Source: Escherichia phage CAjan
Strand: one strand, 5' to 3'
Length of the DNA stretch: 59,670 nt
Sequence record: KP064094
The notes under the pieces are model-generated. The model did no database searches, was not told where the DNA came from, and was given only the letters and a program-made list of their open reading frames with translations. The position numbers and the translations under genes are program-made. Positions 27,669 to 35,508 of this stretch are shown here, in pieces (position 1 is the first letter of the stretch; each line of letters starts with the position of its first letter).

Positions 27669-28621
27669 TAGACACGTTCTCCAATTAACACACCGCGAAG
27701 ATTTTCCCCAAAGAATGCGCAAGGTTGCGGATATAAACTAAAGTCCGCAGTCTTAACCACATTTTCGAGTAATAACAGGATGTCGATATTGTAAACTCCC
27801 GTTATTGATCTGTCCTGCAATACGAAGCTTGCACCTTCTGCATCATCGTAATGAGTACGCGCTAGACCGTTTTCAATATATACGCGAGGACGATCTTCCG
27901 CAAAAGGTTTAATTTTATGCAAGCCCTCAAAAAGACCTGGATCAACAGGATGTGCATTGCATTGAACATTTAAAATACGACGAATATCGGGCCACTCCGC
28001 ATCAATAAGCTGTGTTCGCAACCAGCGACCTTCCGGATAATGAAACGTCACATTGTTCTTGCTAACCTGAATATGTGTCGGGTTAGCTTTAATGCGCAGT
28101 ATTTCTTTAATAGCAACAGACGGTATTATGCAGTCAATAGGGAATTGATTACCAAACCAATATTCCGCAATGGTGACGTTATTTGTAGCAAACAGGCTAC
28201 CGTTATTAATTAGAATACCGCAAGCCCACGGGCGGGATGCATCTGAGCCTACAAACGGAGCAACGGACTTCACACCATGAACGAAGCGAGCCCCATCTAT
28301 TTCGTATAAATCACCTTCAGGGAATACGTGAGGTGTTTCCTTGTCAATGCAGCGTATAGCAACACGAAACGGTCCGGACTTGATATTAAGTTTACCGTTA
28401 GCCATCATTGTTAACTGTACGGTTTCGTCACAGTTTGAAATAGCTTTAATCATAGGTCCAGCTTCGGGCTTGCAATCAATATCCAGCTCAATAGGACTAC
28501 CCAGTGCAATAACACCGTTGAAGCCCTGTACCTGTCCATCACGGATAAGAAAGCTGGTAAGCCCTTCTACCAGTTCCTTCTTCGCTACGGAGCCTTGAAC
28601 AAATTTAAGAGCGTCTAACAT
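27668..28621 (-). CDS. DNA polymerase sliding clamp (beta-clamp/DnaN-like)
   Basis: 317 aa; resemblance to bacterial DnaN segments (IKSGPFRVAIRCIDKETPHVFP and QLIDAEWPDIRRIL, cf. DnaN LVDGRFPDYRRVL); immediately upstream of the polymerase. Confidence 0.6.
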   Translation of the reverse strand: MLDALKFVQGSVAKKELVEGLTSFLIRDGQVQGFNGVIALGSPIELDIDCKPEAGPMIKAISNCDETVQLTMMANGKLNIKSGPFRVAIRCIDKETPHVFPEGDLYEIDGARFVHGVKSVAPFVGSDASRPWACGILINNGSLFATNNVTIAEYWFGNQFPIDCIIPSVAIKEILRIKANPTHIQVSKNNVTFHYPEGRWLRTQLIDAEWPDIRRILNVQCNAHPVDPGLFEGLHKIKPFAEDRPRVYIENGLARTHYDDAEGASFVLQDRSITGVYNIDILLLLENVVKTADFSLYPQPCAFFGENLRGVLIGERV

Positions 28622-28848
28622 TAGCGATCCTCGATTGCTCTAATTGTGGTTAAATCTAATTCACAGGTTGGAGGGTATCCATAAAGTCCCATTTGTTTTC
28701 CTTGTGCATTAAACCATGTACCTGACGGATCCTGCCACTGCTTAGGTGTCTTGTGGAGAAATACTACTCTGTTTTCACCGTAATAATTAATTCTTACGCC
28801 TGTGTGAGTATATTTACGTTTACCTTTTGGTCTTCTTAAGTTAGCCAT
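28621..28848 (-). CDS. hypothetical protein
   Basis: 75-aa basic ORF, translationally coupled (TAATG). Confidence 0.4.
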   Translation of the reverse strand: MANLRRPKGKRKYTHTGVRINYYGENRVVFLHKTPKQWQDPSGTWFNAQGKQMGLYGYPPTCELDLTTIRAIEDR

Positions 28849-29768
28849 CAGAACAACTCCATTACACGATCACGGAATGTGCCGTCATGGGTAGCGTTAA
28901 TGTTTGCAGCAATTACACCATAAGCCCATAAATTGAAGGCAGCACGTGATTCATAGATTGTTGATAAACGTTCGTAAGTGAAACCGTTTTGCTCAAGGTA
29001 TTTAAGGACAGCGTCTTGTTCAATTTCAGTTAATGTTGAAACATGCTTACCAAAATGATGGCGGTCCGGTGACTTATCTGATACGCGCATTGGTCCCCAC
29101 GGAGGGGTAACCACACTTCCAAACGCTGCTGCTTGAATCCAGGAGGATGAGTCGCAGCTATACCACGGATAACGTTCCATGATGGTTGTTGACGTAATAC
29201 CAAACGCATGAAGTTTAATCTTAGCACGTCCGCTACCGTCGCAAATATATTTGTCCCACATGCGGTCAAGCCAAGTCTTAAGCGTGTCCGTGGAACGTCC
29301 TACCATACCCCCGATAGTGATATATTCGTAGTTCTTCATGTAGTATTCAAGATAGCGGAAGTCCTCCCCAAAGTGAAAGCAAGGTAACGGTTTAGCACCG
29401 CGTGCTTCCATTTCAAGTTGGTTACGGTAGGTTTGCAACGGATCACCGATACCATCGAGCACCGACGCCATTACTGCGCCATCTTCTACGCGAAGGATGT
29501 CTTTGTTGCGCTTGATGTATTCGCAGTATTCAACAATATCAATGTGAGCACCTAACGAGTGCGCGGAGAATGCACCGGAGTCGAGAAACACTTTAGCTCC
29601 ATCCGCACGCATCTGATCAACATACTTTTGACGTCCAACGTAGTGGTATGATTCCAAAATATGGGGCAGATTGCGCGTGATATTTTTCTCATGCTCAGAC
29701 AGCTTTTCATAACGCTGCTGTCCAGGCATATATCCGTTCGTGTAAACTGCTGCCATAAAAACGTTCAT
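28848..29768 (-). CDS. dpdA: DpdA-like DNA 7-deazaguanine transglycosylase (TGT superfamily)
   Basis: 306 aa with FLDSGAFS, analogous to the DSGGFQ motif of tRNA-guanine transglycosylases; adjacent to FolE/QueD/QueC/QueE genes. Confidence 0.65.
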   Translation of the reverse strand: MNVFMAAVYTNGYMPGQQRYEKLSEHEKNITRNLPHILESYHYVGRQKYVDQMRADGAKVFLDSGAFSAHSLGAHIDIVEYCEYIKRNKDILRVEDGAVMASVLDGIGDPLQTYRNQLEMEARGAKPLPCFHFGEDFRYLEYYMKNYEYITIGGMVGRSTDTLKTWLDRMWDKYICDGSGRAKIKLHAFGITSTTIMERYPWYSCDSSSWIQAAAFGSVVTPPWGPMRVSDKSPDRHHFGKHVSTLTEIEQDAVLKYLEQNGFTYERLSTIYESRAAFNLWAYGVIAANINATHDGTFRDRVMELF

Positions 29769-29971
29769 TTTTGGAACGGTCCTCCAAACTGATCAATTAG
29801 TTCTAAAGTACGCCACACTTCATTAAATGCTTCGTCCGCTTGATGTTTAGCGTCAATAAGCTGCTGCTTTAAGACATTTGTAGGAGCATCATTCTGTATC
29901 GCAGAGCAAGCATCCGCAGTACCTGCTTTAAGCTTGTAGAATGCAGCTTCTAAAATTAATTGTCTTGACAT
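29765..29971 (-). CDS. hypothetical protein
   Basis: 68 aa from ATG 29971; start uncertain (track gives 29998). Confidence 0.35.
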   Translation of the reverse strand: MSRQLILEAAFYKLKAGTADACSAIQNDAPTNVLKQQLIDAKHQADEAFNEVWRTLELIDQFGGPFQK

Positions 29972-30042
29972 ATTTCCCCCAATGACTAAAAAGCCCATAC
30001 CAGTATTATGACCGATATGGGCTTGATCTGTAAAGCTATCTA

Positions 30043-30633
30043 TTATTTACAAGCTTCAAGGAACTCCCGGCGCCATTCTTTACCAATATCGCTACCATGC
30101 TCCAGTTCTGTAGCGCCCCGGAACGCTTTGGTAATAGTAGAGCTTCCGCATACCTGCTTGACGCCACGACTTTCCATGCACATATGCTTGGCGTCAATAT
30201 AAACACATACAGCTTTCGGGTTTAAATGCTCCTGAATAGCGTCTGCAATCTGGTTAGTAAGACGTTCCTGAACTTGCAGTCGACGACTAAAAGCATCCAC
30301 AACGCGAGACAGCTTACTAAGCCCAACGATCTTCCCATTGGGGACATAACCCACAACAGCACGCCCGATAATAGGAGCCATGTGATGCTCACAATGACTG
30401 TATACAGGAATATCACGGACAATGACCATTTCATCCGCACCTTCCGCACCATCTTCAAAGGTTTTAAACAATCCAGCGATATCTACATCGTAACCGCTGA
30501 ACCACGTTGCATAAGCTTTCGCTACACGCTCCGGAGTTTCCATCAACCCATCACGCAGACCTTCTTCTGCTTTTACGCCTTCAATCTGACGCAGGATAGA
30601 AATAATATTCGCTTCGAGTATTGTTTTATTCAT
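30043..30633 (-). CDS. folE: GTP cyclohydrolase I
   Basis: 196 aa with HCEHHMAPI zinc-binding active-site motif of GTP cyclohydrolase I. Confidence 0.85.
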   Translation of the reverse strand: MNKTILEANIISILRQIEGVKAEEGLRDGLMETPERVAKAYATWFSGYDVDIAGLFKTFEDGAEGADEMVIVRDIPVYSHCEHHMAPIIGRAVVGYVPNGKIVGLSKLSRVVDAFSRRLQVQERLTNQIADAIQEHLNPKAVCVYIDAKHMCMESRGVKQVCGSSTITKAFRGATELEHGSDIGKEWRREFLEACK

Positions 30634-30669
30634 GGTTTGCAGTTTCCTTGTTTGTTAATGTGGTCATAC

Positions 30670-31191
30670 TTACAGGCTATAATTTACGTGACATTTCAAA
30701 GTTTCTTCGATGGTGCATTCTACAAGTTGAACACCATGCTCGTCAAGCAGTTGCGGCCCAATTACTTCAACCATGTATGCAGCTAAGTTTTCCGCAGTTG
30801 GGTTGAACGGTAGAGCTACCAGTGAATCAACGAAATGTGAGTGCTCTTCTTCTGTAATATAACCTTCACTTTCATCCGCTAAAACATCACGAAGACCGAT
30901 AAGTAAGTGATCTTTTTCCCAATGCAGGAACTTATGATCCCAGTTATCTTCCAGCCACTGGCAAAGCGTAGTTTTAACCACACTGAAGTCGATAACACGA
31001 CCAACACTGTCCAGGCCTCCTTCTAGCGTCAGTTTACCGCACGTAATCTTTTTAACATCCGTGCGACCTTTCGGGGCAACCTTAAAGTGAAACTTATAGT
31101 TATGTCCGTGAAGATGTCGACATTTGCTTTCATGTCCTACAACACGGTGCCCAGCGCAAATTTCATGTGAACGGATCACTGTATAGCTCAT
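30670..31191 (-). CDS. queD: 6-carboxy-5,6,7,8-tetrahydropterin synthase
   Basis: 173 aa with CxxHGH-type motif (CRHLHGHNY) and second His/Glu region typical of QueD/PTPS family. Confidence 0.85.
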   Translation of the reverse strand: MSYTVIRSHEICAGHRVVGHESKCRHLHGHNYKFHFKVAPKGRTDVKKITCGKLTLEGGLDSVGRVIDFSVVKTTLCQWLEDNWDHKFLHWEKDHLLIGLRDVLADESEGYITEEEHSHFVDSLVALPFNPTAENLAAYMVEVIGPQLLDEHGVQLVECTIEETLKCHVNYSL

Positions 31192-31192
31192 T

Positions 31193-31516
31193 TTATTCTC
31201 CTAACTCTGCTTTAACCGCTGCTTCGATATCTTCAAGGGCTTTAAGTTCATGAGTATAGTAACTCATATCATCTGGTTCAGTCGACTCTTCGTGCATGGT
31301 TTCTAATGCTTGACGCCATATAGCTATGTGACCTTTAATCATACATGCAAGCGAACTATGACCTTTGTAAACTGCTTTGTCCACTTGCATCTGTGGGTTG
31401 AATTGCACAATAGCATCTTCAACAAGATCAATCAGATCATATGCTTGTTGAGGGACTGGGTTTCCAAATGCTTTATGAGCTATACCCATTCTTGCTAAAT
31501 TACTTATCCTATTCAT
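31193..31516 (-). CDS. hypothetical protein embedded in the deazaguanine cluster
   Basis: 107 aa, SD AAGGAG; no recognised motif. Confidence 0.45.
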   Translation of the reverse strand: MNRISNLARMGIAHKAFGNPVPQQAYDLIDLVEDAIVQFNPQMQVDKAVYKGHSSLACMIKGHIAIWRQALETMHEESTEPDDMSYYTHELKALEDIEAAVKAELGE

Positions 31517-32082
31517 TTCGATACTCCTTTCGATTGTTCAATTTCTAACGCACGCTGTGCGGACGCAATAATGTCTTTTAAGTCTTCTACCAGACTTTTA
31601 TGCCCGCGCTCACCGGGTTGCAATGCTTTTTTGATAAGGTGTTGCAGAGCTGGGTTCGTTGTTTCCCAGGCGGTAAGAACATCATACACATCTACAACAA
31701 TTGAAGCAACATGCCCGTCAATATCTTTACCGCGGATAAGGCGCTGGTATTTGGTCAGACGGTTATCTTCAGGATAGCTCTGGTAACGCGCTTCTGGAAC
31801 CGTCATTGCAATTTCCATCACTTCTTTAAACTTGTGCTCGGTTATTGGGTCTTTGCTGGTCATTTGTTGATTAATTGGCTCTTCAATGATGTAACGCCAA
31901 GCAGTCACATCAAATTGTGTGGTCATTGGGATTGGCGAATATGACCATATCCAACCAGCTCCGCGATGGTTTCTTAAAACGTTACCATTTCTTAGTTTCA
32001 CTTCAAAATGGTCATTCTGAAGATAGACGGGCATCCCTTTGCCGTCGTGTTTGTGCCAAATTTTATCCAGATTATCTTTCAT
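31513..32082 (-). CDS. hypothetical protein embedded in the deazaguanine cluster
   Basis: about 189 aa from ATG 32082 (track start 32121 is TTG); no recognised motif. Confidence 0.45.
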   Translation of the reverse strand: MKDNLDKIWHKHDGKGMPVYLQNDHFEVKLRNGNVLRNHRGAGWIWSYSPIPMTTQFDVTAWRYIIEEPINQQMTSKDPITEHKFKEVMEIAMTVPEARYQSYPEDNRLTKYQRLIRGKDIDGHVASIVVDVYDVLTAWETTNPALQHLIKKALQPGERGHKSLVEDLKDIIASAQRALEIEQSKGVSK

Positions 32083-32083
32083 T

Positions 32084-32563
32084 TTATGCTCTCGCTGTAC
32101 GTGAATGAACTTCGTAAACAACCCAAAGGATAGCTGATGCTGTGAACTTACTTAAGCTCATTGCTACCATCGATCCCGGATTTACAATACCAATAATACT
32201 TAAGAATACAATGGAGTCAATTGGTACTGCGACCAAAGAGCTGATAAATACTCGTTGATGGAAAGGCTTCTTGGTGACCGTGTATACCACATAGTCAGCA
32301 AACTCGCTAAGTGCAAATGACGCAACGGATGCAACTACAACCGCAGGATCCCCGAACACCCAGCTAAGAATGCAACCGACAATCATTGCAGGGATAACGC
32401 CTTTGCCAGCGTTACGCTGTGCGTAGTCACGCAGGACGAAGATAATACCTACGAAGAAAGCCATCATGGGTACTACGCCAAGCGGCGTGTTAAGCATTGG
32501 AAGGTAGGAAAAGCCCAGGTTTACGAACGTAATTGCAGCCAGGTAAGCAACGATAAATTTCAT
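32084..32563 (-). CDS. integral membrane protein, possible 7-deazaguanine precursor transporter
   Basis: 159 aa, 4-5 hydrophobic helices, SD GGAGA; location inside a queuosine-precursor cluster suggests a YhhQ/QueT-like role (inference). Confidence 0.4.
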   Translation of the reverse strand: MKFIVAYLAAITFVNLGFSYLPMLNTPLGVVPMMAFFVGIIFVLRDYAQRNAGKGVIPAMIVGCILSWVFGDPAVVVASVASFALSEFADYVVYTVTKKPFHQRVFISSLVAVPIDSIVFLSIIGIVNPGSMVAMSLSKFTASAILWVVYEVHSRTARA

Positions 32564-32683
32564 ACTTTTGTTCTCCAGTTTTAACAGCGTTATTCGCTGG
32601 TTGTTGGGTTTAAAAGCTTTAGTAGTATAGTTGGGTTACCGCACCCTAAACAATGCGCTAGCGGTGCGGTTTTCGCGGTAAGA

Positions 32684-33406
32684 TCAAACGTGTTTGCTGT
32701 AAGCGTTATCCATAAATTCAGTGTAACCCTTAGCACGGAGTTTACACGCTGGGCATTCCCCGCAACCGTATCCCCAGTCATGCAAAGTTCGACGAATGCC
32801 GTTATAGCAGGTGTGCGACTGTTCAATAACTGTGGTTAAGAAACCAACCTTGTCCGCCAGCTCAAACGTTTCAGCTTTGTTTAAACGCATAAGTGGGGTA
32901 ACAAAATGAATATCTGTTTCATATCCAACGTTTAAGGTAGCTTCAAGCAAATCAACAAACTGCTGACGGCAATCCGGATAACCGCTATAGTCCGTTTCAC
33001 ATACGCCTGTAACCACATATCGGGCTCCGACCTTCTGCGCGTAAGCGTGCGCGGTTGTCAGAAAAAGCGCATTACGATTTGGCACAAAACTTGCCGGAAG
33101 GTTATTGTGCTGTTCGTGATGCTCGTTGACATCACCTTCGTTCCCGATCAAAGCGCTATTACCAATCTGTTTCAAAGCTGGTAATTCGAAGACAACAAAC
33201 GGGACATTGTGCTCTTTACAAATTTGATTAGCACAAGCCAGCTCAATGTTATGACGTTGACCGTATGCAAAACCAATAGCGTAAACTTTATCATAGTTAT
33301 TAAGCGCAAGACCTAGACAAGTCACGCTGTCCTGACCGCCAGACAGGACCACAACGGCGGAGTTATGATTTTTTACAGGGAACACCAGTTTATCTAATTT
33401 ATTCAT
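32684..33406 (-). CDS. queC: 7-cyano-7-deazaguanine (preQ0) synthase
   Basis: 240 aa with PP-loop SGGQDS and C-terminal zinc-binding cysteines (CYNG...CGECPACKLR); no fused amidotransferase domain. Confidence 0.85.
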   Translation of the reverse strand: MNKLDKLVFPVKNHNSAVVVLSGGQDSVTCLGLALNNYDKVYAIGFAYGQRHNIELACANQICKEHNVPFVVFELPALKQIGNSALIGNEGDVNEHHEQHNNLPASFVPNRNALFLTTAHAYAQKVGARYVVTGVCETDYSGYPDCRQQFVDLLEATLNVGYETDIHFVTPLMRLNKAETFELADKVGFLTTVIEQSHTCYNGIRRTLHDWGYGCGECPACKLRAKGYTEFMDNAYSKHV

Positions 33407-33407
33407 T

Positions 33408-33596
33408 TTAGAAACCTTTAAGGCTAATATTAAGGTTAACGACTACTTGTTCAACTACATCTTCACAGGTCACCTGACGCTTGTGAATTTCAAGTTCCGA
33501 ATATATTTTCTTTGAAGCTGCGCGACATAGGGCGTCATTCAATTCGTCTTGTAGACGTTGAATCTTGTGCATAAGCACTACAGTTTCTTCATTCAT
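33408..33596 (-). CDS. hypothetical small protein
   Basis: 62 aa from ATG 33596 with SD AAGGTG. Confidence 0.35.
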   Translation of the reverse strand: MNEETVVLMHKIQRLQDELNDALCRAASKKIYSELEIHKRQVTCEDVVEQVVVNLNISLKGF

Positions 33597-33801
33597 TTTC
33601 CACACCTTTAATATAACAAGGGTTGATTGTTACATTTGACATTACAATTGGATGATTACGTGCTCCAATTGTACTAACGTGATTAATATCTAATTCTACA
33701 TGCACACCCTGCATAGTAGCATGGGCAATTGCAGAATTAAGTTTTTCTACCAGCTCAGTAATCATTTCCTGATGCTGTTTTGCTTCTTCTAAAGTGATCA
33801 T
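33589..33801 (-). CDS. hypothetical small protein
   Basis: 70 aa; TAATG-coupled to queE. Confidence 0.4.
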   Translation of the reverse strand: MITLEEAKQHQEMITELVEKLNSAIAHATMQGVHVELDINHVSTIGARNHPIVMSNVTINPCYIKGVENE

Positions 33802-34508
33802 TATTCTACCCCAATATATTTGTGAACCTGAAGCTGCAACGTGTAACCGTGTTTCATACAGCTTTGGACAACGGCTTGGATGTTACTGTGGTTAAGATCT
33901 TCATCCTGCTCGTCCATTGGCTGTAAATATATCTTACCCTTGAAACCCTTCGGAGGTCTAGCGATAAATGGCGTAGCTTGATGATCTAATGCCTGAAGCG
34001 GCAAACCATCTTCCACGTTTACACAGCACGCTTTAAGTACATATTTAAATGCATTAGCGCGGCGCAGCACAGAAGGATGAATCTTTGAGGTCTTGGGACT
34101 ACATACAATTACAGGTAACTGGGAAAAGTTCTTAGGTAAAGGCATAGACCCATTAGTTTCAATTTGCACCAAATACCCGCGCGATAACAGTTGTTCAATA
34201 AACGGGTTAATTTGCTGACGGAACGGTTCGCCCCCAGTGATAACCACAAGTGAGGTGCTATTGCCGGATTCCAGCTTACGGCTTTCGATTAAACGCATAA
34301 TATCGACAATGTGATAAAGACTACGACCAACAGTATAATCTGTATCACAGCCAGGGCATTGCAGATTACACCCAGCAAGACGCACAAATACAGCAGGTTG
34401 GCCGCAGAATGGACCTTCACCCTGAATGGTAGAGAATACCGAATGCACGTCTAAATACATATCGTTTTCTTTAGAACGGGACTCGGGAGCTTGTTGATTA
34501 ATATTCAT
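33801..34508 (-). CDS. queE: 7-carboxy-7-deazaguanine synthase (radical SAM)
   Basis: 235 aa with CNLQCPGC (CxxxCxxC radical SAM cluster motif) and QueE-like length; SD AGAGGA. Confidence 0.85.
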   Translation of the reverse strand: MNINQQAPESRSKENDMYLDVHSVFSTIQGEGPFCGQPAVFVRLAGCNLQCPGCDTDYTVGRSLYHIVDIMRLIESRKLESGNSTSLVVITGGEPFRQQINPFIEQLLSRGYLVQIETNGSMPLPKNFSQLPVIVCSPKTSKIHPSVLRRANAFKYVLKACCVNVEDGLPLQALDHQATPFIARPPKGFKGKIYLQPMDEQDEDLNHSNIQAVVQSCMKHGYTLQLQVHKYIGVE

Positions 34509-34521
34509 CTTAAATCCTCTA

Positions 34522-34553
34522 GTGAAAAAGAAAGCGCCTCATTGGGCGCTTTC
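34522..34553 (-). terminator. intrinsic terminator-like hairpin upstream of queE
   Basis: GAAAGCGCC-TCATTG-GGCGCTTTC with a T-run on the minus strand. Confidence 0.45.
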
Positions 34554-34577
34554 ATTATAACGTGATATGTTTTGATA

Positions 34578-35381
34578 TTACAAGCCGTTCAGGGCTTCCG
34601 GTACTGGCATAGGTACGCGACCAGTCACACCATTAAACTTCTTCCAACGCGCATACTGAGTTTTAACGGTATCTTCGTTCAGACCGTGGCGACCAGCCAG
34701 ATTCAGAACATAAGAGATTGGAGCAGGCTGACCCAGCGTAGCGCTAATCTGATCCATCAGAGCCCAGGCACGACCGCAGGAAGTTTCCGGTTGCGGACGA
34801 CGAACACCATTCTGTTCAGGCATACGGTTCGCTTCTTTCGCTTTTTCACGTTCAGCTTTTTCGCGGGCTTTTTCAGCAGCCTTTTCAGCCTGTTTAGCAG
34901 CGCGGATCTTGTCTTTGAAGCCTTTGATAGACGAATCCAGTTCGTCGACCATGCTCTGAGCAGCAGTTACTGCACCGGACAGATCTTCACCTTTGGATTT
35001 TTTAACAACTGCTTTCAGATCTTTCAGAGCATTCTTTAAATGCTTCAGCTGTTCGGAACCCTTAGATTCTGCTTCCGTAATCTGTTCAACAGTGCTTTCA
35101 TCGGTAATACCGGATAAAGCAAACTTCACGGTTTCAACTGCCTGGGAAAGAGCGGTAAATTTATTTTCAGCTTCAGTACGAATTTCAGCTTGTTTCTTTT
35201 CAGCGGCAGCTTTTTTCTCTGCTTCTTTTTTCTCTTTTGCTACGCGTGCAGCTTCAGCGGCAGCGGCTTTTTTAGCTTCTGCGTCGTTAGCAGTAGCTTC
35301 TTTCTTTGCAGGCTTAGCAGATTTTGCAGCGGCAGCAGCGGCTGCGGCAGCAGCGGCTTTCTTATCTTCAATATTACTCAT
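34578..35381 (-). CDS. Ala/Lys-rich histone H1-like protein with C-terminal HTH-like domain
   Basis: about 267 aa from ATG 35381; AKKA/KAAAE-type low-complexity repeats over about 200 aa, then a globular C-terminal segment (GRAWALMDQISATLGQPAPISYVLNLAGRHGLNEDTVKTQYARW). Confidence 0.5.
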   Translation of the reverse strand: MSNIEDKKAAAAAAAAAAAKSAKPAKKEATANDAEAKKAAAAEAARVAKEKKEAEKKAAAEKKQAEIRTEAENKFTALSQAVETVKFALSGITDESTVEQITEAESKGSEQLKHLKNALKDLKAVVKKSKGEDLSGAVTAAQSMVDELDSSIKGFKDKIRAAKQAEKAAEKAREKAEREKAKEANRMPEQNGVRRPQPETSCGRAWALMDQISATLGQPAPISYVLNLAGRHGLNEDTVKTQYARWKKFNGVTGRVPMPVPEALNGL

Positions 35382-35508
35382 TTTCTTCACTCCGAATTAT
35401 TATGGGTTCGTTTGTTACCAACGGGGTTAAATGTACCAAAGGATTTTGTGACACGCAACCCCTTACATAAACATTTTTAAAAATATTTTTGATCAGGGTT
35501 AGAACTTA

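Follow-up and report, generated by a model that had tools for sequence, protein, structure and literature searches.

Among the closest described parallels to the genes considered here are Gat-QueC, QueF, DpdL, DpdM and DpdN, which are embedded among folE, queD, queE, queC and dpdA; DpdL, DpdM and DpdN came from unknown genes of such clusters (PMC10516641). In Escherichia phage CAjan, a Seuratvirus, the deazaguanine cluster has been published at 28,621–34,560, with the positions of four deletions given in NC_028776, and LC-MS/MS assays for dADG, dQ, dPreQ0, dPreQ1 and dG+ detected only dPreQ0 in the phage DNA (PMC7544227). FolE, QueD, QueE, QueC and DpdA already account for this product and, because dPreQ0 stands alone among the five nucleosides assayed, no further step is needed. 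Three other systems resemble parts of the locus: E. coli YhhQ, a 221-residue polytopic inner-membrane protein linked to tRNA modification; the separately transcribed "moron" or nin-type islets of small, variable genes in siphoviruses; and DUF3310, a small domain of ∼65 residues that is widespread in phages, alone or fused, and that occupies residues 122–184 of T7 gp1.7.

A preliminary description of CAjan DNA, made from the sequence alone, had proposed the three genes between queD and queC as prime candidates for an undescribed step of the pathway, as tailoring enzymes or precursor transporters. We analyzed the whole 59,670-nt stretch of CAjan DNA (KP064094), referred to below as the window, whose coordinates agree with the published cluster and deletion positions, and find the three-gene segment to be ordinary and largely already known. 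It is reasonably likely, in our view, that the segment combines one pathway-linked gene, encoding a transporter, with two accessory genes, ORF-A and ORF-B, that are not deazaguanine enzymes. The latter two share their setting with Gat-QueC, QueF, DpdL, DpdM and DpdN, but they are dissimilar to all of these proteins, their distribution does not follow dpdA, and there is no extra CAjan product for them to explain. A false lead is thereby removed: the dPreQ0 pathway of CAjan needs no extra enzyme, and ORF-A and ORF-B are poor candidates for one.

Organization of the queC–queD interval

The three ORFs are placed between queD and queC where the preliminary description had put them, on the minus strand and with both flanking assignments confirmed by Pfam (Table 1). 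All three are real genes under purifying selection: dN/dS is 0.017 for yhhQ, and comparisons of ORF-A with Nonagvirus PD328 and of ORF-B with VogelGryff give 0.135 and 0.127, respectively. Each matches a PHROG family (E 1e-37 to 1e-103), ORF-A and the CAjan protein A0A0D4DAL0 have 100% identity, and all homologues of ORF-B begin with MKDNL. The genes are tightly packed: the ORF-B stop and ORF-A start overlap as ATGA, a single base (TAA-A-ATG) lies between yhhQ and ORF-B and again between ORF-A and queD, and a Shine–Dalgarno-like motif is present separately at each start. Close packing is thus a direct observation; from it we infer the translational coupling that had been claimed for ORF-A and ORF-B.

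Table 1. Features of the queC–queD interval of CAjan, in window coordinates
Feature	Position	Strand	Description
queD (flank)	30670–31191	−	Pfam PTPS, E 5e-20; CxxxHGH signature in translation
ORF-A (CAjan gp39)	31193–31516	−	107 aa; all-helical small protein
ORF-A C-terminal module	31199–31381	−	aa 46–106; helical hairpin, phrog_24659
ORF-A N-terminal module	31382–31516	−	aa 1–45; found with other C-termini in small proteins
ORF-B (CAjan gp40)	31513–32082	−	189 aa from ATG; two-domain
ORF-B C-terminal module	31528–31761	−	aa 108–185; about 75 aa
Interval missing in ΔyhhQ mutant	31851–32400	.	550 bp; 6-nt boundary uncertainty from junction microhomology
ORF-B N-terminal β-rich domain	31888–32082	−	∼aa 1–65, approximate boundary; predicted strands aa 26–30, 35–38, 59–64
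yhhQ-like gene (CAjan gp41)	32084–32563	−	159 aa; membrane protein of the short VUT/COG1738 form; putative importer of preQ0 or a similar 7-deazaguanine base
Hairpin in 120-nt queC–yhhQ spacer	32638–32670	−	Computed fold
queC (flank)	32684–33406	−	Pfam QueC, E 8e-75

The spacer between queC and yhhQ contains a hairpin whose stability does not significantly exceed that of shuffled sequence (the whole 131-nt stretch has z = −1.47, not significant), and in one relative a rho-independent terminator is annotated in the corresponding spacer. A preQ1 riboswitch reportedly lies upstream of yhhQ in E. coli. Unlike that gene, CAjan yhhQ shows no preQ1 riboswitch upstream: Rfam models gave no match in 32400–32800 even with the threshold relaxed to E 10, and none at the gathering score window-wide.

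The YhhQ-like membrane gene and its association with DpdA

Judged by sequence, the membrane gene is one of the VUT/COG1738 (YhhQ) queuosine-precursor transporters, among which it falls into a phage subfamily of short proteins, about 160 aa long; this assignment is already known. A crude hydropathy scan of the 159-aa product gives 5–6 hydrophobic segments; the preliminary description had called the product polytopic, and the family expectation is about six helices and a full length of about 190–220 aa. Pfam Vut_1 (PF02592) matches the protein below its cutoff of 27.2 (25.3 bits, E 2e-5), as does NCBIfam TIGR00697 (22.2 bits, cutoff 50.95), and BLASTP against E. coli YhhQ gives no significant match. 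Most of the 108 subfamily homologues carry PF02592, however, and the homologue search reaches 190-aa proteins named queuosine precursor transporter (E 1e-9 to 1e-13). An hhalign comparison with E. coli YhhQ aligns CAjan residues 33–134 with YhhQ residues 44–172 (102 columns, 24% identity, E 2.9e-4, probability 40%), and the motifs RD, AS..SE..D and SS..D of the subfamily profile align with those of the E. coli protein. The CAjan protein shares with YhhQ a probable polytopic inner-membrane type, these motifs and a genomic tie to 7-deazaguanine metabolism, but it is about 60 aa shorter, without the helix 3–4 loop and the C-terminal ∼45 residues, and its gene is phage-borne and linked to DNA modification through DpdA rather than to tRNA modification. 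In CAjan and relatives the gene is already annotated as the YhhQ preQ0 transporter, and putative preQ0 transporter is the published annotation (PMC7544227; PMC10484667). For this gene, the precursor-transporter idea of the preliminary description is probably right, but it is not new.

Among 50,697 phage records, the yhhQ-type gene is found in 74 and DpdA in 235. The YhhQ carriers that were sampled, namely Seuratviruses, Rhizobium phages (14 records in each search), Klebsiella phage K4PH164 and Vibrio phage VpKK5, are likewise among the DpdA matches. In CAjan, yhhQ adjoins queC; in Vibrio phage BUCT006 a DpdA-like gene directly adjoins the yhhQ-type gene, and Arthrobacter phage Aoka carries DpdA two genes away from its yhhQ-type gene. 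In the latter two phages, preQ0 synthesis genes were not found within 5 kb of the transporter gene. In several phage lineages, then, the presence of short YhhQ-like genes goes strongly together with that of DpdA, and the co-occurrence with dpdA that had been suggested as a check is positive for this gene in several host groups.

The product could instead carry another VUT substrate, or act at the membrane as an exclusion or lysis-timing factor, rather than import preQ0. The sub-threshold Vut_1 and TIGR00697 scores, the shortened architecture and the low identity to E. coli YhhQ are compatible with such a role, as are the lack of a deletion phenotype (below) and the position of the gene in Rhizobium phage RHph_Y55 and Vibrio phage VpKK5, where it sits in the replication module and deazaguanine genes were not found in its 5-kb flanks. 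Nevertheless, we regard a role other than preQ0 import as unlikely, given the occurrence of the gene together with DpdA in genomes from several host groups, the adjacent or near-adjacent genes in BUCT006 and Aoka, and queuosine-precursor uptake, which is said to be the only characterized VUT-family function that suits this context.

A ΔyhhQ mutant of CAjan grows to high titre and resists restriction digestion, with 36.0% modified G compared with 34.9% in the wild type, and in rich medium the phage shows no defect in modification (PMC7544227). We mapped the deletion from public read assemblies, in which contigs L198–L201 match the window at 100% identity to the left and right of the deletion, and the result agrees with Table 1 of PMC7544227. 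The deletion also takes the ORF-B start codon and codons 1–78, and with them nearly all of the N-terminal domain. The contigs encode a 166-aa in-frame fusion of YhhQ residues 1–54 to the C-terminal part of ORF-B, so that the published ΔyhhQ phage is a yhhQ::gp40 in-frame fusion and not a clean single-gene knock-out. A deletion without effect on DNA modification, which the preliminary description had named as evidence against a pathway role, is thus available for ORF-B codons 1–78; because the C-terminal module is retained in the fusion, the mutant is uninformative on that module.

Modules of ORF-B and ORF-A in phages with and without deazaguanine genes

ORF-B matches phrog_23361 (E 2e-103) and is 52–56% identical to other Seuratvirus alleles, between flanking genes that are at least 97% identical; its AlphaFold2 model has a mean pLDDT of 66.6. 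The N-terminal domain is largely restricted to Seuratvirus-type proteins. The C-terminal module has 25 invariant columns in an alignment of diverse phages, with the consensus NKYxREI..VDVYDVLxAWxVTNPALQHLIKKALQPGERGHK..DLxDIxxSAxRAxEL, and gave no match in Pfam or, in a sequence profile search of ORF-B, in the PDB. It occurs in 702 phage records, 368 of which are from Salmonella phages, a host group with DpdA in only 3 records. Among the 80 best loci of its 246 IMG/VR relatives, deazaguanine genes lie within 10 kb in three. In the complete Jersey genome the module is present and deazaguanine genes were not found, and across 77 loci no constant neighbor emerged, with lysis genes, a NinB-like gene and DnaB varying from place to place. 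The module therefore does not follow dpdA, and the proposal that ORF-B is a pathway step or tailoring enzyme is unsupported, since its conserved part is found mostly in phages without deazaguanine genes, an outcome that the preliminary description itself had named as refuting.

An alternative view of the C-terminal module is that it is a divergent DUF3310, the domain at the C-terminus of the nucleotide kinase T7 gp1.7; ORF-B would then be an enzyme of nucleotide metabolism. The helix order and charged-residue spacing look alike by eye, the module is helical in the ORF-B model, and Foldseek gives weak matches (E 0.03–0.04) to proteins named "nucleotide kinase". Profile–profile tests do not support homology, however: hhalign gives a probability of 3% against T7 gp1.7 and 0.09% against an alignment of 72 T7-like DUF3310 sequences, the module and T7 gp1.7 have zero PHROG families in common, and Pfam DUF3310 does not match ORF-B even at E 10. 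We rejected this relation on the hhalign and PHROG results and consider it highly improbable. As a separate observation, the C-terminal module is a highly conserved domain present in ∼1.4% of sequenced phages that does not belong to a Pfam family.

Among 5.8 billion proteins ORF-A has just 4 close homologues, and its AlphaFold2 model (mean pLDDT 87.9) is predicted to be helical. A 72% identical copy occupies the equivalent position upstream of queD in Nonagvirus PD328, and in other small proteins, such as BRET_32, which is encoded in the equivalent slot, the N-terminal module is joined to a different C-terminus. The C-terminal module (pLDDT 93–98) has nine invariant alignment columns, including G52, H53, M59, H63, H89 and E90. 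A search of 1.84 billion representatives gives 84 relatives of this module, some of them stand-alone proteins and others attached to unrelated domains. Three states of the position occur in Seuratviruses with DpdA at 99–100% identity: ORF-A, an 89-aa ORF unrelated to it, and an empty slot. ORF-A is absent or replaced in most Seuratviruses, which speaks against the earlier suggestion that it performs an undescribed step of the pathway. Matches of ORF-A residues 11–57 to eight giant repeat proteins were judged to be due to chance and inflated by the repeats, given the helical prediction for ORF-A; in a Pfam scan of four of the eight, three are DUF7507/DUF11-type β-sandwich surface proteins and the fourth has a marginal flagellar-hook domain match.

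Several observations would suit a different reading, in which ORF-A, ORF-B or both are accessory factors of deazaguanine modification that determine the second motif of DpdA (GGC), channel preQ0, block QueF or Tgt, or carry out a tailoring step so far undetected. Both genes are packed tightly within the operon, and there is the precedent of DpdL, DpdM and DpdN. Of 11 IMG/VR loci that carry the ORF-A C-terminal module, 6 have deazaguanine genes alongside, among them that of BcepGomr, a distant phage. The module borders queD or dpdA in Seuratvirus, Nonagvirus, Klebsiella Queuovirinae and BcepGomr; in the Nonagvirus cluster an ORF-B-module protein sits between queE and gat-queC. These six loci are not independent lineages, however, and most of the deazaguanine-linked occurrences fall within a single related lineage whose replication module is syntenic, so that they do not count as independent events. 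Both ORF-A modules are also found in small-gene islets of 9NA-like phages. Deazaguanine genes were not found in the 8–10 kb fetched around the ORF-A modules of these phages or in SP069 (a 41-kb record, probably partial), and it is from these flanks and this record, together with the DpdA count in Salmonella phages, that their absence from 9NA-like phages is taken. CAjan DNA contains dPreQ0 only, the ORF-B module resides overwhelmingly in phages without DpdA, ORF-A is lost or replaced in close Seuratviruses, and loss of the ORF-B N-terminal domain left modification unchanged. No similarity of ORF-A or ORF-B to any enzyme family was found, and PADLOC gave no meaningful match. Taken with this evidence, we give accessory roles of this kind little chance of being correct.

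A proposed division of roles

We favor instead a scheme in which ORF-B and ORF-A would be mosaic accessory genes in a recombination-prone slot between queC/yhhQ and queD. ORF-B would combine a lineage-restricted N-terminal domain with a module common to many siphoviruses that have no DNA deazaguanine system, and ORF-A would join two small helical modules, each of which is found separately elsewhere. The slot resembles the "moron" or nin-region type in its presence, absence and replacement between near-identical flanks, in the shuffled modules of its proteins, and in that homologues of these modules lie within islets of small genes in 9NA-like, Jersey-like and lambdoid-type phages. It differs from these islets in lying inside a biosynthetic operon, with stop and start codons that overlap or abut. 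The putative role of both proteins is most likely of a binding or host-takeover type, independent of deazaguanine, and the charged, highly conserved ORF-B C-terminal module may have as its partner a nucleic acid or else some conserved factor of the host.

In a narrower version of the accessory-factor reading, the ORF-A hairpin, with its invariant His53, His63, His89 and Glu90, and perhaps the ORF-B C-terminal module would be accessory factors of phage 7-deazaguanine DNA modification. The hairpin could then bind metal and serve as a small adaptor, either tuning QueD or DpdA (the second CAjan motif, GGC, included) or shielding the preQ0 pool from host enzymes. This fits the recurrence of the hairpin beside queD or dpdA in the four groups named above, and we rate its chances as slimmer still.

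In the scheme that we favor, the phage YhhQ would most likely take up free preQ0, or a closely related 7-deazaguanine base, from the medium during infection, and DpdA would then insert the imported base into phage DNA. Import would supplement synthesis by FolE, QueD, QueE and QueC, and the transporter would be dispensable while de novo synthesis works. The homology to YhhQ and the co-occurrence with DpdA are direct observations; the substrate and the direction of transport are predicted from them. The pairing of a DpdA-like gene with a transporter gene in BUCT006 and Aoka, with preQ0 synthesis genes not nearby, supports the idea of DNA modification from a salvaged base in some phages.

Gene arrangement and a deletion spanning yhhQ and ORF-B

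The three open reading frames between queD and queC lie on the minus strand at exactly the coordinates of the preliminary description (see table), in the deazaguanine cluster published at 28,621–34,560 (PMC7544227). The sequence is that of phage CAjan (NC_028776): its length (59,670 bp) and the four published deletion positions (PMC7544227) agree, and ORF-A matches CAjan protein A0A0D4DAL0 at 100% identity. The stop codon of ORF-B overlaps the start codon of ORF-A (ATGA). A single base lies between yhhQ and ORF-B, and likewise between ORF-A and queD; every start has a Shine–Dalgarno-like motif of its own. The dN/dS values of 0.135 (ORF-A), 0.127 (ORF-B) and 0.017 (yhhQ) indicate purifying selection on all three genes.

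Features of the CAjan modification locus
Feature	Coordinates	Strand	Description
dpdA	28848–29768		central enzyme of the system
folE–queD–ORF-A–ORF-B stretch	30043–32082		mosaic hot spot
queD	30670–31191
ORF-A	31193–31516	−	gp39, 107 aa
ORF-B	31513–32082	−	gp40, 189 aa
ΔyhhQ gap	31,851–32,400 (±6 nt)		550 bp
yhhQ	32084–32563	−	gp41, 159 aa
spacer hairpin	32638–32670	−	GC-rich
queC	32684–33406
small ORF	33589–33801		70 aa, between queE and queC
terminator-like hairpin	34530–34553		strong
270-aa ORF	34530–35390		ORF upstream of queE; interval includes the hairpin and promoter-like site
promoter-like site	34554–34583

Kot et al. constructed CAjan deletions of folE, queC, dpdA and "yhhQ" (PMC7544227). 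The ΔyhhQ genome, at 59,120 bp, is 550 bp shorter than that of the wild type, with the deletion placed at position 31,850 (PMC7544227); a deletion of this size at this position cannot fit inside the 480-bp yhhQ gene. Both of our protein searches returned a 166-aa protein matching YhhQ and ORF-B together, which is encoded on contigs of four public sequencing runs (SRR14312197–200). These contigs are 100% identical to CAjan on either side of a single 550-bp gap that removes YhhQ residues 55–159 along with the start and codons 1–78 of ORF-B, creating an in-frame fusion of YhhQ(1–54) to ORF-B(79–189). The published "ΔyhhQ" is thus a 550-bp deletion spanning two genes. Because this mutant kept wild-type modification (36.0% of G positions versus 34.9% in the wild type, with resistance to restriction digestion retained; PMC7544227), intact YhhQ and the ORF-B N-terminal domain are not required for dPreQ0 modification in rich medium. 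The result covers these two elements only, as the ORF-B C-terminal module is kept in the fusion and ORF-A lies outside the deletion.

The membrane protein and its distribution among phages

The 159-aa YhhQ protein scores 25.3 bits against Pfam Vut_1, just under the curated threshold of 27.2, and 22.2 bits against TIGR00697, well under the threshold of 50.95; BLASTP against E. coli YhhQ gave no significant match. It belongs to a coherent subfamily of 152–165-aa proteins, most with PF02592, that merges gradually with 190-aa proteins carrying the name queuosine precursor transporter. The subfamily profile aligns with E. coli YhhQ residues 44–172 (E = 2.9e-4), and the conserved motifs line up; hydropathy indicates 5–6 membrane segments. 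These results place the protein in the VUT/COG1738 family, as a distant member of reduced length. The suggestion that the locus encodes a precursor transporter fits this gene, but the putative transporter was already known: it is annotated as a preQ0 transporter in CAjan, Skure, VogelGryff and SA126VB and described as one in two papers (PMC7544227, PMC10484667). Its putative identity is not new; what is new here is its distribution across phages.

The short yhhQ gene occurs in 74 of 50,697 phage records and DpdA in 235. The YhhQ carriers that could be checked (Seuratviruses, Rhizobium phages, Klebsiella K4PH164 and Vibrio Queuovirinae) are also among the DpdA matches, with 14 Rhizobium records in each search. 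A distant DpdA homologue abuts a short YhhQ-like gene in Vibrio phage BUCT006 (4195–5465 of the locus), and an annotated DpdA lies two genes from one in Arthrobacter phage Aoka (4962–6446 of the locus); no preQ0 synthesis genes were found within 5 kb of either pair. Both pairs fit import of a base for insertion by DpdA. The two phages are candidates for modifying their DNA purely from a salvaged base. CAjan DpdA itself has no Pfam match at E values up to 0.1 and is recognisable only through its phage homologues.

ORF-A and ORF-B as probable exchangeable accessory genes

The preliminary description also proposed ORF-A and ORF-B as candidates for an undescribed step of the pathway. This logic has precedent, since such clusters yielded DpdL, DpdM and DpdN from among their unknown genes (PMC10516641). 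LC-MS/MS of CAjan DNA detected dPreQ0 only, out of five deazaguanine nucleosides assayed (PMC7544227), and the same five genes produce this base in phage iggy, whose inserted hypothetical genes are different (PMC10484667). CAjan QueD keeps the CxxxHGH signature and so is not the DpdL decarboxylase paralogue (PMC10516641). The pathway is complete in CAjan. The most plausible reading of both ORFs is as exchangeable accessory genes rather than tailoring enzymes; most likely they would serve a binding or host-takeover function independent of deazaguanine.

Over the 6-kb region around the three ORFs, Escherichia phage Skure is 99% identical to CAjan and ∼30 other Seuratvirus genomes are 90–93% identical. 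We compared seven Seuratvirus loci whose DpdA proteins are 99–100% identical. ORF-A is present at its position in CAjan, Skure and an IMG/VR contig; VogelGryff and a second contig carry an unrelated 89-aa ORF there, and the position is empty in SA126VB and a further contig. Identity across these loci is 97% or higher for YhhQ, QueC and QueE but only 52–56% for ORF-B, 74–84% for QueD and 85–92% for FolE. Together with the three states of the ORF-A position, this contrast with the conserved genes on both flanks marks the folE–queD–ORF-A–ORF-B stretch as a mosaic hot spot. The slot upstream of queD in Queuovirinae holds one to three differing small genes. A Nonagvirus PD328 copy is 72% identical to CAjan ORF-A, which suggests exchange between genera.

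ORF-B comprises a beta-rich N-terminal domain (about residues 1–65), an indel-rich, poorly predicted linker and a C-terminal module (residues 108–185), in which 25 columns are invariant among widely differing phages. Full-length relatives number only 32 records, all Seuratvirus-type; the C-module alone occurs in 702 phage records, among them Jersey-like, Kagunavirus-like, Vibrio, Klebsiella, Aeromonas and Pseudomonas phages, either as a 76-aa protein by itself or in fusions with a wide range of partners. Salmonella phages account for 368 of the 702, but DpdA is encoded in just 3 Salmonella phage records. The complete genome of Jersey carries the C-module but no deazaguanine gene, and 77 of the best 80 IMG/VR loci lack a deazaguanine gene within 10 kb. 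The module has no constant neighbour in the IMG/VR loci, where lysis, NinB-like and DnaB genes vary around it. In Salmonella phage Jersey (2865–4222 of the locus), the stand-alone gene overlaps the end of a calcineurin-like (Mre11-type) phosphoesterase gene; in Aeromonas phage LAh_7 (2432–3892 of the locus), the module makes up the N-terminus of a protein that also contains BRCT, and genes for polynucleotide kinase and exoribonuclease lie nearby. These contexts hint at a link to nucleic-acid repair.

ORF-A is predicted to be all-helical (pLDDT 87.9) and consists of two modules (residues 1–45 and 46–106), each found separately elsewhere; the whole protein has only four close homologues among 5.8 billion proteins. 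Its C-module is predicted with confidence as a helical hairpin, and nine of its columns are invariant, G52, H53, M59, H63, H89 and E90 among them. A search of 1.84 billion representative proteins yielded 84 relatives, which occur alone, as tandem duplicates or fused to unrelated domains (for example MazG, P-loop kinase or Tad2-like). In 6 of 11 IMG/VR loci the C-module adjoins a deazaguanine cluster. These are not independent events, because five are Queuovirinae-type with the full cluster and the sixth, BcepGomr, has a replication module in the same gene order. In 9NA-like phages, both modules occur in small-gene islets between head genes, and no deazaguanine gene was found in the 41-kb record of one of these, SP069. 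None of the seven Salmonella records with the module is among the three Salmonella DpdA matches, and any residual link to deazaguanine genes is weak. Matches by phmmer of ORF-A residues 11–57 to giant proteins (repeat-inflated, up to 12 stretches) were judged to be chance given the predicted helical fold; three of four scanned with Pfam are DUF7507/DUF11 beta-sandwich surface proteins.

Other features of the operon

The 120-nt spacer upstream of yhhQ contains no preQ1 riboswitch. Its GC-rich hairpin has no Rfam match and no significant fold energy. In a relative, the spacer has an annotated rho-independent terminator, but the CAjan hairpin lacks a T-tract. PHROGs and the CAjan annotation call the small ORF a "radical SAM domain-containing protein", probably a mistaken carry-over because the ORF has no Pfam match and is far too short for such a domain. 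The Ala/Lys/Glu-rich 270-aa ORF is named FtrA-domain protein in relatives. The terminator-like hairpin and promoter-like site that follow it may mark the 5′ limit of this modification operon.
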